Positions 55,065 through 59,434 of a stretch of DNA of 64,000 nucleotides are shown piece after piece. Source of the DNA: Escherichia phage 121/2022-2B; sequence record OR958571.1, one strand, 5' to 3'. Below the pieces are notes generated by a model. That model ran no database searches. It had not been told where the DNA came from and saw nothing but the letters and a program-made list of their open reading frames with translations. The position numbers were made by a program, and so were the translations under genes. Position 1 is the first letter of the stretch. Each line of letters begins with the position of its first letter.

Positions 55065-55454
55065 TTAATCCAAAATATTATTAGGCATTGGTTGAACACT
55101 CACAAGTTCTTTAAAGAACTCAGTAGAGTCAGGCAATTTAACCATTTCCGGAGCATGCTTACTGAATTTATGTTTACATTGACGGCATTTATATTCAAGC
55201 TCTGGTTTACGCCAGTTAATCAATTGAACTTGTTCAGTACCGCATTCAGGGCAATTAGGAACGTTTTTAGAAGCTCTTTCACGTCGTTCAACTATAGCCA
55301 TAATAGCATCCCATGCTGGAGGTTTAAAATCTAAATCGTCGCAGCCGTGAATCTTTCCACGCATTTCCATATCATCTTCCTCACCAGCCATAATAATTTT
55401 AATTAAACTGGAATTACTTGAAGCTGCAATGTCTTCTAATAAACGCTTTTTCAT
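55065..55454 (-). CDS. Hypothetical zinc-ribbon protein (129 aa)
   Basis: [13 protein letters not shown]. Confidence 0.55.
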
Positions 55455-56377
55455 TTCAATACCTCAATAGCATTACGTAAACCATTTGCTTTGGCGGTTA
55501 AAGCCTTAAGAACTTTAGTATGCTCTTCAATCTGTTTTTCAACTTCAATCAAACGGGCACTGAGATATTCGCGTTCTTCTTTCATAGTATCATTTCCATG
55601 ATTGGATTTTGGTGTAGGTTTAAATTCACTAGGGTCCTTTAATTTAATAACAAATTTAGTTTCAAACAGCGAAAGACCATAATTCGTATTATCATCAAAG
55701 GATTTGACTACATCCATATCAGATAATAACACGCGTAAATTATAAGCCAAAGAACTAATAGTTTCATTGTGTTTATTAGCTTCGCGTGGTTTCATATACG
55801 GAAGATTTTTATATATCTCGTGCGGAGCACAAATGATAATTGACAATTCAAATTGCCCATTCTGGGACGATGGAGTGAATTTAGCCGTAACCCAGTCTTT
55901 TACATTCACATTAATAGTACGGTTATCACCATGACAAAACAGTCTACGAGAATGCTTAAAAAGCATATTCACGTTATTATTGAATTCGTGTGAAAATTCA
56001 CTAGCAAATTTTTCTTTACTATCTTTAGAAAACCATTCTTCTAAATAAGTTCTTTTCACGTCGTTAATAATATTAAATGTAACAACACTAGCATTTGATA
56101 CATTAGTCTCAATGTAGCTTGGATACATAAATTTTTTAACATTATTAACAGCTATCACAGAAGATAGTAATCGGGAACGTTTGAACCACTCGAGCAAAGA
56201 ACCAAGAGAATGTGAATACGCATTTTGTGTATCTTTACAAATATGGTTTTCCCATCCAATATAGTCTAAAAAATCACGAAGAATATTATTGATTACTGCT
56301 CTGTGTCCTATCTGATAATTACGATGTTTAGTAATAAGACTGTCAAAATAATCAATATAATGTTTACGAGTTTTCAT
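55451..56377 (-). CDS. Uncharacterized protein, paralogue family member A (308 aa, C-terminal coiled coil)
   Basis: N-terminus MKTRKH...; heptad-like C-terminus. Confidence 0.6.
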   Translation of the reverse strand: MKTRKHYIDYFDSLITKHRNYQIGHRAVINNILRDFLDYIGWENHICKDTQNAYSHSLGSLLEWFKRSRLLSSVIAVNNVKKFMYPSYIETNVSNASVVTFNIINDVKRTYLEEWFSKDSKEKFASEFSHEFNNNVNMLFKHSRRLFCHGDNRTINVNVKDWVTAKFTPSSQNGQFELSIIICAPHEIYKNLPYMKPREANKHNETISSLAYNLRVLLSDMDVVKSFDDNTNYGLSLFETKFVIKLKDPSEFKPTPKSNHGNDTMKEEREYLSARLIEVEKQIEEHTKVLKALTAKANGLRNAIEVLK

Positions 56378-56429
56378 GTTCTTCTCACTTGGTTAATGAT
56401 TTATACTCCGAGCCATCCTTGGCTTTAAA

Positions 56430-57431
56430 TTACTTAATTAACTGTAAAGCTTGTTCCAGACGATCAAGACGATTAACAGATTCTTCCCAAATCCTTTTAG
56501 CCTGCTCATATTCTTTCTGCGCTTTATTAGAAATTTCTAGAACTTCTTTATAAGCTTTTTCTAGTGCAATAACTTCTGGACGAATTTCTATCGGTTCAGG
56601 TGAATCATCAAGACATTCCATTAGTTCCTCAAGGGTAGTTTCTTCTTTAGGAGTATTCACAATTTCATCACATTTTTGTTGGTAAATTTCTTTATCAGTA
56701 GGTGAATAAGCACATTTCACTTCACGAAGGCTAATTACGAGTTTATATCCTTCCCAACCGCATATATTCTTAAAAGGATATGTATGAATATTTTCTACTG
56801 TTTCCATACAAAGTAATGCGGTCTCTAATTGACGAGTTATAGTGCTAGCAATTGAGAAAAATTTATTAATATTCTTTTGGTTAGTTTCTGGTGTAAAAAA
56901 TCCATAATTCACAAAAATAGATACTTTATTTTTATCAAGTTCATATTCTTTTATGATAATCATATCAGAAGCCAAAGGATGAATTTGACGATAATCGCCA
57001 TAACATAATTTAGAAGCTGATTTTAGAATTTGTTTCTTAAAAAGTCTGAAATTACTGATCCAACGACGAGTAAAAATATTCTCAGGGTCTTCTTTAATAT
57101 TAAGATGATAAGAATTAACATCACCGAACCAATTGTATCCTACTACATCTTTAGTTCGTTTAATTTCTTTCCCAAAATTACCAAGAATATCCCGATTAAC
57201 CAAATATGAAAGAAGACGAGACTCTTTAAAGGTTTTCTTGATAACATCTTTATCTACACGGCTAGAAATTTTACGAATTTCATGAATAAATTTAGTAGAA
57301 GAAACAATACTTGCATCAACACTATTGAGCCATTGATTGATAATAGAAAGAACGCTATTTTGGCCAAACATCGGTATAGCTTTATCATCAATAACGCTAT
57401 TGAATGATTTGATATATTCGTTACGAGTCAT
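56430..57431 (-). CDS. Uncharacterized protein, paralogue family member B (333 aa)
   Basis: Corrected ATG after promoter with GGAG SD; RRWISNFRLFKKQILKSASKL aligns with member C. Confidence 0.55.
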   Translation of the reverse strand: MTRNEYIKSFNSVIDDKAIPMFGQNSVLSIINQWLNSVDASIVSSTKFIHEIRKISSRVDKDVIKKTFKESRLLSYLVNRDILGNFGKEIKRTKDVVGYNWFGDVNSYHLNIKEDPENIFTRRWISNFRLFKKQILKSASKLCYGDYRQIHPLASDMIIIKEYELDKNKVSIFVNYGFFTPETNQKNINKFFSIASTITRQLETALLCMETVENIHTYPFKNICGWEGYKLVISLREVKCAYSPTDKEIYQQKCDEIVNTPKEETTLEELMECLDDSPEPIEIRPEVIALEKAYKEVLEISNKAQKEYEQAKRIWEESVNRLDRLEQALQLIK

Positions 57432-57444
57432 AATAATCTCCTCA

Positions 57445-57492
57445 GTAGAAAGTAAAAACATTATACCACATCCTTGTGGCAAAGTAAACTAG
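57445..57492 (-). promoter_or_regulatory. Early promoter cassette (near-copy of the rIIA.1 promoter)
   Basis: GTTTACTTTGCCACAAGGATGTGGTATAATG on the minus strand. Confidence 0.6.
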
Positions 57493-58514
57493 TTCAGTGC
57501 ATTTAGTGCATTGTTCAGTTTAGAACGTTGCTTTGTCAGATTTTGAACCCTTGACTGAGCTTGTTCTAACGCCTTTTCAACTTCTAGCACTTCATTGGTC
57601 GCTTTAACGAGTTCATCATCTACTGCCTTAAGAGACTTCTCAATCGCGTCAGCGTGCCATTTTTCTACAGGTTTAAAATTTGAATTTTCAGTAGGAAGAA
57701 AACTCACTTTATTAAGTTTACATGCATCTATATTGCTTGAGCTATACATCCAAAATTTAGGATCGTTTGATAAGTAATTGGATAAATTTAAATTTAAGGT
57801 ATCTTGCACTTCCTGCTTTTTCTCTTGAACAATTTCATCCTTTCTCAAAAATTCATATTTAAATGAAACGATCATATCAAGTTCATATGTTGTTGTATGT
57901 TCCCAATTTCGCTCAAAACGAGGTAAAATCTTAGATTGAACAGCAGCAACAACATCCATATACTTAAATGCTTCTGTCAGCTGTGATTTAAGACATTCAC
58001 AAATTGAAAGAGAATTTTTAGTATTAGGCTTAAAGCTAATTCGTGCAGTTCTGTTATTTTCTTTTAATGGTCTTACTTCCATCTGAAGAGTATAACCATC
58101 AAATTTCAGGTTCTTTAAGTTAATGTCAGAACCTTTTAATCGACTAGCCGTCGACAAAATTTGCTTTAATTGTCTACGGAACAGAGCAATAAATCTCCAT
58201 TCAATACGATAATGATTTGGATTGAAAAATCCAGATGATAAATCGACCTTACTTTGACCAACGCCTTGAACAAATAGAGGATTTTTATAATCAATAGTTT
58301 TACAGAAATCGGTGAGCTGCTCACGAGCCGTCATTTGTGTAATATACCCCGCTTTACTAAAATGACGTAACCATTCACTGCTATTCATATATTTAAAGTG
58401 AATATCACGATTAACTTTATCAGGGTCTAAATTATTTTGGCACAAAAATGTCATAACATCACGAGTATAGCTGGCATTACGAACCATATCTTCAATTTGA
58501 GAACGAGTTTTCAT
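57489..58514 (-). CDS. Uncharacterized protein, paralogue family member C (341 aa)
   Basis: N-terminus MKTRSQ...; IEWRFIALFRRQLKQILSTASRL; C-terminal coiled coil. Confidence 0.6.
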   Translation of the reverse strand: MKTRSQIEDMVRNASYTRDVMTFLCQNNLDPDKVNRDIHFKYMNSSEWLRHFSKAGYITQMTAREQLTDFCKTIDYKNPLFVQGVGQSKVDLSSGFFNPNHYRIEWRFIALFRRQLKQILSTASRLKGSDINLKNLKFDGYTLQMEVRPLKENNRTARISFKPNTKNSLSICECLKSQLTEAFKYMDVVAAVQSKILPRFERNWEHTTTYELDMIVSFKYEFLRKDEIVQEKKQEVQDTLNLNLSNYLSNDPKFWMYSSSNIDACKLNKVSFLPTENSNFKPVEKWHADAIEKSLKAVDDELVKATNEVLEVEKALEQAQSRVQNLTKQRSKLNNALNALN

Positions 58515-58522
58515 GGTGTTCC

Positions 58523-59434
58523 TTAAGATTTAAGTAAATCGACAATTTTAATTAACTTTTCACGCTCAGATTTAGCTTTACTACTCAGTCCAGATAGTCT
58601 GAAAATTTCATCATCATATTGTTGAATAGAAATATTCAGCTCTTCAATCTGTTTATTAAAATAATCAATTTGTTCAGAATGTTTTTCGTTACTACGAACT
58701 GGTACAGGTTTCGTAGGCAATGTAGTTGAACTGGATTCATCCGGGCGATAAATTAAAATACAACTTGAACCAATAGGGCATTTTGCACCAGATGAATATT
58801 CTAATGTTCCAGCTTCTTTTAAAACTTCAAAAGCTAAACAGAGATGATGCCCCATATTAACATAATCTGCAGAGTGAGCTCTGATATAATAATCATCGCC
58901 ACGAATACTAAATTTAAAGCATTTAAGGTCTTCTGTATTATTGGTCTTAAAAATCATTTGTTTATCTAGACCTTTAGCTAATCGAGCGCCTAATGCTAAT
59001 AATCGTCTTTGATTTTCCCACAAATCCGCAATCATTTGATCGAATGATAATTTTGGCATCAGTCGACCGTAAAGGTCATATCCTTTATTATAATTACGAA
59101 GGATTTCACTCGCGTTAATACGAGACAATGCTCCAATTTTATTAAGGGCTTTCATAATGCGATTAGATAAACTCATTCCAGATCCGTTTGTTCGCTGCAA
59201 ATGTTTTTCTAATCCAAATCCAATATCAACTTTAAACTTATCTAAAATTTCTGCATGAACATCTCTGTCGATAACATTCAAATCCAAAGTTGAGTTAAAT
59301 CTATGAAAAAATTTATCTGGCTCTGCACTGCGAAATACAGTCCATTCATTCATCATTTTTTTATTAACTAAAGATTTAATTACTGCATTGACATTATTAA
59401 TTACTACTGACATATTTTCCTCACTCAATTTCAA
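58523..59434 (-). CDS. Uncharacterized protein, paralogue family member D (303 aa)
   Basis: LWENQRRLLALGARLAKGL region and C-terminal coiled coil. Confidence 0.55.
   Translation of the reverse strand: MKLSEENMSVVINNVNAVIKSLVNKKMMNEWTVFRSAEPDKFFHRFNSTLDLNVIDRDVHAEILDKFKVDIGFGLEKHLQRTNGSGMSLSNRIMKALNKIGALSRINASEILRNYNKGYDLYGRLMPKLSFDQMIADLWENQRRLLALGARLAKGLDKQMIFKTNNTEDLKCFKFSIRGDDYYIRAHSADYVNMGHHLCLAFEVLKEAGTLEYSSGAKCPIGSSCILIYRPDESSSTTLPTKPVPVRSNEKHSEQIDYFNKQIEELNISIQQYDDEIFRLSGLSSKAKSEREKLIKIVDLLKS

Follow-up and report, generated by a model that had tools for sequence, protein, structure and literature searches.

The locus studied here raises the question whether four successive genes in the accessory region of a T4-type phage descend from a single gene, and what their products do for the phage. 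T4 is the best-studied phage, and about half of its genes are without known function. The genes lie in a stretch of 64,000 nucleotides (nt) of Escherichia phage 121/2022-2B (OR958571.1), called the window throughout. Bases 55000-60500 of the window show 98.3% identity to Escherichia phage vB_EcoM_G29, and 741 phage records were matched in all; judged by these matches, the genome segment is that of a Tequatrovirus (T4-type). The list of open reading frames (ORFs) and the T4 reference annotation revealed four minus-strand ORFs in succession, flanked by nrdC.2 and nrdC.7, which are the orthologues of T4 nrdC.3, nrdC.4, nrdC.5 and nrdC.6. An initial annotation of the window had described them as tandem diversifying paralogues in a phage accessory region. 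This placement was borne out, as the genes form the nrdC.3-nrdC.6 block of T4, within the accessory region which extends from gene 49 to nrdC.11.

The genes nrdC.3, nrdC.4 and nrdC.5 almost certainly share one ancestor, and all four together probably arose long ago from one gene by tandem duplication and have diverged strongly since. With a somewhat better than even chance, the products would be oligomeric, non-enzymatic proteins made early to inhibit the defence proteins of the host, with one specificity for each paralogue, an anti-defence role being published for the T4 orthologue of nrdC.5 alone. The genes themselves and the activity of nrdC.5 against the defence protein Dsr1 are already known; the modest new point is that the four constitute one diverged family with a common architecture.

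All four genes were found where the initial annotation had put them, and the lengths given there for the first three were correct. nrdC.3 (55451..56377, minus strand) encodes 308 amino acids (aa) with 92% identity to T4 NrdC.3 and matches phrog_1435 with E=6e-101. nrdC.4 (56430..57431, minus strand) encodes 333 aa from its ATG, with 99% identity to T4 NrdC.4, and matches the same family with E=6e-168. nrdC.5 (57489..58514, minus strand) encodes 341 aa with 92% identity to T4 NrdC.5 and belongs to DUF7235 (E=5e-116) and phrog_2351. nrdC.6 (58523..59413, minus strand) encodes 296 aa from its ATG, shows 96% identity to T4 NrdC.6 over residues 1-259 and matches phrog_2257. The phrog_1435 and phrog_2257 matches span the full protein length. 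In precomputed assignments, homologues of NrdC.4 are tagged PF26897 and those of NrdC.6 are tagged PF26899.

Common ancestry of NrdC.3, NrdC.4 and NrdC.5

Direct BLASTP among the four proteins was nearly silent, giving E=0.002 for NrdC.3 and NrdC.4, a short coil match between NrdC.3 and NrdC.5 and no significance for the remaining pairs, and therefore family profiles were built. The alignments were drawn from nine loci of five genera; word-indexed homologue searches gave mainly close relatives. NrdC.3 and NrdC.4, both in phrog_1435, aligned by hhalign with 97.2% probability over 212 columns (E=3.9e-11), and NrdC.3 matched an NrdC.4-like protein of phage VR26 over its full length (E=1.6e-8). 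The joint NrdC.3/NrdC.4 profile aligned with that of NrdC.5 at 92.6% (E=4.6e-7) in the non-coil core, residues 65-216 of the former and 49-193 of the latter. NrdC.4 and NrdC.5 by themselves gave 90%, and 79% with larger alignments (E=1.6e-5, 243 collinear columns).

All 49 window ORFs of at least 150 aa, 48 besides the query, served as the empirical null for profile ranks. The NrdC.5 profile placed NrdC.3 first (70%, E=3.9e-5) and NrdC.4 second among the 48 other ORFs, and the joint profile ranked NrdC.5 first. With the DUF7235 (PF23882) model, which has a gathering cut-off of 30 bits, NrdC.5 scored 387.9 bits as a member and NrdC.3 reached 11.4 bits, below the cut-off; NrdC.4 and NrdC.6 gave no hit. 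The profile of NrdC.3 and NrdC.4 in an exhaustive hidden Markov model (HMM) search of 1.8 billion proteins recovered 9 representatives and reached neither the NrdC.5 nor the NrdC.6 family. Profile similarity, on which the initial annotation had made its claim of tandem paralogy depend, is thus significant between NrdC.3 and NrdC.4 and between this pair and NrdC.5, and for these three the claim stands; NrdC.6 did not reach significance by sequence and joins them through predicted structure and weak collinear motifs.

The databases keep PF23882, PF26897 and PF26899 as three or four separate families, and the link between them was absent from the libraries and papers searched. The families which contain NrdC.3 and NrdC.4 (phrog_1435/PF26897) and NrdC.6 (phrog_2257/PF26899) are of unassigned function. 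NrdC.3 and NrdC.4 are remote homologues of T4 NrdC.5 and NrdC.6 is probably one; the three lie below the DUF7235 threshold and are without known target. It is suggested that PF23882, PF26897 and PF26899, together with PHROGs 1435, 2351 and 2257, be placed in one clan.

Two further candidates were tried as members of the family. nrdC.8, considered as a shortened member, showed no detectable similarity by BLASTP or profile ranks. The tandem ORFs p118-p130 of Acinetobacter phage Ac42 were not significant against the three profiles tested, and evidence for an Acinetobacter array is limited to Foldseek matches to Acj61 and Acj9.

Conserved architecture of the four proteins

Sequence and predicted models suggest a common protein plan, composed of a variable N-terminal helical bundle, a conserved helix pair, a variable alpha/beta domain and a poorly ordered linker followed by a heptad helix of 45-55 residues. 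In the models of NrdC.4 and NrdC.6 the variable alpha/beta domain comprises two beta-hairpins and a long helix. Within each family the motif of the helix pair and the C-terminal helix rank with the best conserved parts, and most of the variation falls in the N-terminal bundle and the alpha/beta domain at the centre; in NrdC.5 the linker is highly variable as well.

The internal segment reported initially for NrdC.4 and NrdC.5, with weaker forms in NrdC.3 and NrdC.6, was recovered in all four proteins. It reads IFTRRWISNFRLFKKQILKSASKLCYGDYR in NrdC.4 and IEWRFIALFRRQLKQILSTASRLKGSDINL in NrdC.5, and the weaker forms are NMLFKHSRRLFCHGD in NrdC.3 and NQRRLLALGARLAKGLD in NrdC.6. The conserved helix pair has the motif (K/R)x(I/L)L..A.(K/R)L..G.D. 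In NrdC.4 it occupies residues 119-148 (RRWISNFRLFKKQILKSASKLCYGD; 56988..57077, minus strand), with model helices at 119-130, 132-140 and 145-148, and it was aligned by hhalign to residues 104-133 of NrdC.5 (EWRFIALFRRQLKQILSTASRLKGSD; 58116..58205, minus strand). The corresponding segment of NrdC.3, residues 123-153 (55919..56011, minus strand), includes NMLFKHSRRLFCHGD and aligns to residues 119-148 of NrdC.4. In NrdC.6 the motif covers residues 124-153 (DLWENQRRLLALGARLAKGLDKQM; 58955..59044, minus strand), with model helices at 124-133, 135-145 and 148-151, and aligns to that of NrdC.4 with P=0.046. It is the best-conserved segment of the NrdC.6 family (77% identity), and the motifs of NrdC.4 and NrdC.5 exceed the protein-wide mean in conservation, that of NrdC.5 likewise being the best-conserved segment of its family.

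The C-terminal heptad region described in the initial annotation was confirmed in four of four proteins. Occupancy of heptad positions a and d by hydrophobic residues was compared with shuffled sequences, and overall 79-88% of the a/d positions are hydrophobic vs 19-26% of the positions elsewhere (p<=0.003). For NrdC.3 (residues 262-308; 55454..55594, minus strand) the values are 79% vs 24% with p=0.003, and for NrdC.4 (residues 285-333; 56433..56579, minus strand) 86% vs 26% with p=0.0005. NrdC.5 (residues 284-341; 57492..57665, minus strand) shows 88% vs 20% and NrdC.6 (residues 246-296; 58526..58678, minus strand) 86% vs 19%, the observed value being reached in 0 of 2000 shuffles in each case. 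AlphaFold2 (AF2) predicts long helices here in both models, a single one at 285-332 in NrdC.4 and two, 246-272 and 278-295, in NrdC.6, where the heptads break at 273-277. All four tails end in L-x-x-A/I-hydrophobic-x-x-L-K. The last 45 residues are 75% identical across genera in NrdC.4 and 66% in NrdC.6, while paralogues share 5-14%; on this comparison, the C-terminal helix is kept among orthologues and is distinct between paralogues.

The N-termini are also alike in three members, as had been noticed before: NrdC.3 starts with MKTRKHY, NrdC.4 with MTRNEY and NrdC.5 with MKTRSQ. Residues T2, R3, Y6, I7 and F10 are invariant throughout the NrdC.3/NrdC.4 alignment.

Relationship of NrdC.6 to the other members

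NrdC.6 is the member whose place in the family is least secure. An AF2 model of NrdC.4 (predicted local distance difference test, pLDDT, 83) and one of NrdC.6 (pLDDT 78) have secondary structure elements which correspond one to one along the chain, in the order helical bundle, short beta element, helix pair, beta-hairpin, long helix, beta-hairpin, linker and long C-terminal helix. Against a viral fold library, the NrdC.4 model matched the NrdC.6 of phage JS10 with a Foldseek E=1e-5 and a probability of 1.00. The fold searches with NrdC.4 and NrdC.6 had five further targets in common (IME523, PM2, Acj9, Acj61 and CBH8; E<=4e-3), from T4-like phages of Enterobacter, Pectobacterium, Acinetobacter and Serratia. 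In Karamvirus, PG7_082 adjoins nrdC.2, the position of nrdC.3/nrdC.4, and yet it matches the NrdC.6 profile (hmmsearch 1e-8; hhalign 74%, 202 columns).

Several observations speak against the inclusion of NrdC.6. Its hhalign comparisons with the other three proteins are not significant (probability 1-4%, P=0.01-0.06), and the exhaustive search with NrdC.3 and NrdC.4 did not reach it and so gave no sequence bridge to NrdC.6. Foldseek template modelling (TM) scores lie at 0.36-0.49, a low level explained by differences in how the domains and the long helix are oriented. The fold comparison is one of predicted models of NrdC.4 and NrdC.6 alone, matched by element order and common targets and not by superposition. 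On predicted structures and weak collinear motifs, NrdC.6 is probably a member.

The alternative is that only nrdC.3, nrdC.4 and nrdC.5 are paralogous and that nrdC.6 is unrelated, its size, alpha/beta content and C-terminal coiled coil being alike by convergence. This would fit the profile comparisons without significance, the separate family given to NrdC.6 in Pfam and PHROGs, its lack of an MKTR N-terminus, a constraint stronger than in the other three and the lack of an NrdC.3-type entry among the top hits of its fold search. However, convergence would also have to account for the match of the NrdC.4 model to an NrdC.6 family member together with the five common targets, for elements in one-to-one correspondence and for the NrdC.6-type gene in the position of nrdC.3/nrdC.4 in Karamvirus. 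Two NrdC.6 profile comparisons gave P=0.046 (with NrdC.4) and P=0.024; the former alignment, non-significant in hhalign, is nevertheless collinear and pairs the same two motifs, SRLLSYLVNRDILGNFGKE of NrdC.4 with GALSRINASEILRNYNKG of NrdC.6 and FKKQILKSASKL..GD of NrdC.4 with QRRLLALGARLAKGLD of NrdC.6. NrdC.3 and NrdC.4 are moreover the top two non-self matches of the NrdC.6 profile among the 48 window ORFs; the chance of both top places going to members of the NrdC.3-NrdC.5 set is ~0.003, in a ranking not significant alone. An unrelated nrdC.6 is considered unlikely.

Copy number, disruption and selection

The comparison of copy number proposed in the initial annotation was carried out with T2, T4, T6 and RB69 included, and the number is three to four according to genus. 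All four genes are present in T2, T4, T6 and the window. RB69 and ATK47 possess nrdC.3, nrdC.5 and nrdC.6 and have no nrdC.4, while VR26, MN01 and E33 possess nrdC.4, nrdC.5 and nrdC.6 and have no nrdC.3. In the region fetched from Karamvirus PG7 one copy is detectable.

Sequence comparison of deposited genomes indicates three independent disruptions. In the reference T4 genome (NC_000866), nrdC.6 (4103-4930 of the T4 region examined, compared with window 58523-59413) lacks 1 nt at position 778 of its coding sequence (CDS), a frameshift by which the entire C-terminal helix is lost (275 vs 296 aa); as the DNA downstream of the deletion has stayed conserved, the loss seems to be recent. RB69 nrdC.5 (5973-6875 of the region examined) has two frame changes near codons 240-263 relative to ATK47 which put the C-terminal helix out of frame. 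The nrdC.5-like gene of SP18 (6038-6942 of the region examined) is split by a frameshift into two ORFs.

Two rearrangements were also observed. A chimeric protein of 299 aa, on contigs of up to 167 kb, begins with residues ~146-270 of NrdC.5 and continues as an nrdC.3-type protein, of which it has the C-terminal half from residue ~137 on. This composition points to a deletion that fused nrdC.5 to nrdC.3 and removed nrdC.4. In Shigella phage Sf25, gp220 (NrdC.6, 378 aa) contains an exact internal tandem duplication of ~82 residues, IRAHSTDY...NKQIEEL occurring twice.

The ratio of nonsynonymous to synonymous divergence (dN/dS; pairwise Nei-Gojobori, against four Tequatroviruses) is 0.21-0.36 for nrdC.3, 0.11-0.26 for nrdC.4, 0.13-0.21 for nrdC.5 and 0.06-0.12 for nrdC.6, values which come from few pairwise, gene-wide comparisons without site classes; most neighbouring genes have ratios <=0.09. 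As the first three lie above most neighbours, constraint is relaxed in nrdC.3-nrdC.5, without gene-wide positive selection. nrdC.3 occurs in two allele classes within Tequatrovirus, with >=90% identity in about 140 records and ~60% in about 310. The classes differ at synonymous divergence (dS) ~1 against ~0.15 in the adjacent nrdC.4, a contrast which indicates allele replacement by recombination and not fast local evolution. In the body of the protein the two classes differ by ~40%, but they have almost the same C-terminal helix. The 3' part of nrdC.2 differs too, encoding a 129-aa product here vs 104 aa in T4. By sequence, the change looks like a recombinational cassette swap across nrdC.2-nrdC.3 (window 55065-56377, minus strand). 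With gene-wide ratios of 0.06-0.36 and the divergence of nrdC.3 being an allele swap, the term 'diversifying' of the initial annotation does not hold in its strict sense.

Anti-defence function and proposed mechanism

For one of the four genes an anti-defence role is published. A T4 deletion mutant lacking nrdC.5 failed on ECOR17 but could infect it again once the sirtuin defence gene dsr1 was disrupted (Srikant et al. 2022, PMC9391042), and T4 nrdC.5 given in trans on a plasmid restored the infection of dsr1-carrying cells by the mutant (PMC9391042). The nrdC.5 of the window is the orthologue at the same genome position; its allele differs at ~8% of residues from the T4 allele for which anti-Dsr1 activity is published. 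T4 tolerates deletion of the nrdC.1-6 block, which is dispensable in the laboratory (PMC9825161). Nearby genes are reported to inhibit other defences: nrdC.1 inhibits Septu and bas37_0203 inhibits Druantia III (bioRxiv 10.1101/2025.11.20.689424), and gp49.2 inhibits OLD (PMC13096335). The tetratricopeptide repeat (TPR) sensor of Dsr1, which many other defence proteins share, is reported to recognise the major capsid protein of the phage (2026 preprint, PMC12803255); two of the cited functional reports are preprints.

Searches for a known function in the proteins themselves were negative. Above threshold, no Pfam or NCBIfam family of known function matches any of the four proteins, and NCBIfam and PADLOC gave sub-threshold matches alone, mostly on the C-terminal helical region. 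PDB sequence searches found no solved relative, the hits, with weak E-values throughout, being ribosomal proteins and designed helical repeats.

The anti-Dsr1 result for nrdC.5, the neighbouring anti-defence genes and the dispensability of the block together make a stoichiometric block of defence proteins the most likely mechanism. The proteins would be made early in infection and may self-associate through the C-terminal coiled coil. They would then act as non-enzymatic binders of host anti-phage defence proteins and block them stoichiometrically. The choice of the defence protein to be bound may lie with the variable domains, and each paralogue may be kept as a separate homo-oligomer by its own specific helix. 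For NrdC.5, the report of a capsid-sensing TPR domain leaves two options, a block of the sensor or a block of the SIR2 effector. Given the published anti-defence activity of nrdC.5 and its three diverged tandem relatives, nrdC.3, nrdC.4 and nrdC.6 are anti-defence candidates, and their roles in this sense are putative. The suggestion in the initial annotation that such proteins are inhibitors in an arms race with the host thus stands for one member, T4 nrdC.5 against Dsr1 (PMC9391042), with nrdC.1 and nrdC.8 nearby, but NrdC.3, NrdC.4 and NrdC.6 have no known function; for its other proposals, sensors and exclusion proteins, no support was found.

The proposal of one inhibitor for each paralogue has to be set against the following points. 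No reported experiment ties nrdC.3, nrdC.4 or nrdC.6 to any defence system, and from this block only nrdC.1 and bas37_0203 are mentioned in the main text of the HIDEN-SEQ preprint. Direct binding of Dsr1 by NrdC.5 is what we infer, no published mechanism having been found, and oligomerisation through the heptad helix is likewise deduced from sequence and monomer models. In none of the four genes does gene-wide dN/dS reach 1, and nrdC.6 is constrained like ordinary neighbours.

With their kinship to nrdC.5, three T4 "hypothetical" genes become directly testable candidates, and the shared architecture offers a template for domain swaps by which the basis of specificity can be studied. Should each paralogue be directed at a different member of the large family of defence proteins with the Dsr1/Avs7 sensor, the array would show a phage tracking a diversifying host sensor family by gene duplication.

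Among known systems, DSAD1, which inhibits the sirtuin defence protein DSR2, is a possible functional analogue according to the available description, as it counters a SIR2-domain NADase whose sensor recognises a phage structural protein. It differs in its target DSR2, its occurrence in Bacillus phages and its tail-tube trigger, and the likeness concerns the described mode of action. The gp49.2, NrdC.1 and NrdC.8/Bas37_0203 proteins come from small accessory genes of the same island without known domains, each reported to disable one defence system; they are far smaller (80-175 aa) than NrdC.3-NrdC.6 and have no detectable sequence relationship to them.

Alternative explanations of function

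The proteins could instead be accessory modulators of host takeover or physiology, with an indirect effect of NrdC.5 on Dsr1, for example through NAD+ metabolism or the timing of capsid synthesis. NAD+-restoring pathways do counter Dsr1 without touching it (PMC13464706), and this explanation agrees with the lack of a published NrdC.5 mechanism and of any reported phenotype for nrdC.3, nrdC.4 and nrdC.6. However, enzyme-like motifs and family matches are absent in Pfam, NCBIfam and PDB searches, and the very narrow distribution (9 representatives among 1.8 billion proteins) is typical of host-specific binders and not of metabolic enzymes. The genes also sit among several reported direct anti-defence genes, and an indirect effect appears quite improbable.

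A more specific version of direct inhibition is mimicry of the trigger. The alpha/beta domain might resemble the neck/tail-terminator fold, so that early oligomers would occupy the sensor domains of defence proteins before the late structural trigger appears; this is offered as speculation of low probability. Equally speculative is the range of targets, which would include Dsr1 and other proteins with the Avs7-type TPR sensor, each paralogue being matched to a different sensor clade. If true, trigger mimicry would amount to a modular phage 'decoy library' aimed at the sensor arm of bacterial immunity and not at its effectors.

The four proteins might also be subunits of a single hetero-oligomer, held together by the C-terminal helices and serving one function such as an anti-Dsr1 complex. 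The genes are adjacent, nrdC.6 and nrdC.5 are apparently co-transcribed with gaps of 8 nt, and four of four proteins have a heptad helix and the similar L-x-x-A/I-hydrophobic-x-x-L-K tail. Yet the helices are only 5-14% identical between paralogues against 66-75% within NrdC.4 and NrdC.6, and the set of copies varies, RB69 being without nrdC.4, VR26 and E33 without nrdC.3 and PG7 having one detectable. Reference T4 overcomes Dsr1 despite the frameshift loss of the NrdC.6 helix, and plasmid nrdC.5 alone restores infection (PMC9391042), in a mutant whose retained neighbours are not named in the text of that paper. A joint complex is therefore very doubtful.

A role in virion or tail assembly, raised by the label in the T6 RefSeq record and by a resemblance to phage tail terminator/completion proteins (lambda gpU-like) which is one of fold alone, is hardly conceivable, as neither a family match, nor a position in the late structural module, nor a clear fold match was found.

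Gene starts, promoters and annotation

The start of nrdC.6 was revised. The 303 aa of the initial annotation correspond to a TTG start at 59434, which would overlap nrdC.7, whereas GAGGAA, a Shine-Dalgarno sequence, lies ahead of the ATG at 59413; for these two reasons the 296-aa form is favoured. PHROG and most annotations begin at the same ATG. In nrdC.4 a longer TTG ORF extends to 57482. Two features support the 333-aa form, a Shine-Dalgarno sequence (GAGGAG) in front of its ATG at 57431 and the -10 box of an early-type promoter, which overlaps the other candidate ATG further upstream.

A consensus scan and pattern search identified an early-type promoter match upstream of nrdC.4 (57460..57489, minus strand; GTTTACTTTGCCACAAGGATGTGGTATAAT) which fits 10 of 12 positions, has a TG-extended -10 and reads GTTTAC-N17-TGGTATAAT. 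A CCAAGGATGG...TATAAT element is common to the intergenic regions 56378-56429, 57432-57488 and 59829-59883 (minus strand), upstream of nrdC.3, nrdC.4 and nrdC.7, and a related promoter-like element is also present upstream of nrdC.8. By their consensus matches these shared elements are probably early promoters. The gap between nrdC.6 and its upstream gene is 8 nt, as is that of nrdC.5, and the same matches suggest nrdC.7-nrdC.6-nrdC.5, nrdC.4, and nrdC.3 onward as the likely transcription units. nrdC.5 is termed an early gene in the literature, and the accessory block is probably transcribed early. Deletions and amplifications have been reported in the region, and the intergenic CCAAGGATGG...TATAAT repeats might also provide microhomology for such events.

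Labels of these genes in public records have to be treated with caution. In the T6 RefSeq record (NC_054907) the nrdC block is mislabelled, with product names shifted and small ORFs called 'baseplate wedge subunit', names copied from phage SHFML-26. The label 'tail sheath stabilizer and completion protein' on T6 NrdC.5 was rejected as a propagated mis-annotation. In many other records the entire nrdC.1-nrdC.11 block bears the label 'thioredoxin'.

Neighbouring genes of the accessory region

bas37_0203 of phage KarlGJung (Bas37) was considered as one of the four genes and rejected; it is the orthologue of nrdC.8, two genes upstream of nrdC.6, with 99.4% identity to the 175-aa product of window 59884-60411 (minus strand). 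NrdC.8 also has a heptad-like C-terminus (p=0.005). The nrdC.1 orthologue, of 80 aa and 99% identity to that of T4, is situated at 54820-55062 (minus strand).

In tblastn, T4 49.2 and 49.3 had no match in the window; gp49.2 is present in T4 and T6. Like T2 and Bas35, the window has small ORFs in their place (53300-54560), with products of 56 and 71 aa. This replacement of 49.2/49.3 indicates that the content of the anti-defence island varies among close relatives.

In the same region an ORF of 58 aa (53349-53525, minus strand) lies just downstream of pin (53562-54065, minus strand). Its last 18 residues are nearly those of Pin, IRQYKRLHRMFYNT vs IRQYKRLHQMFYNT, and 54 of the final 75 nt are identical to the 3' end of pin. 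On this similarity the ORF seems to have arisen when the 3' end of pin was partially duplicated.

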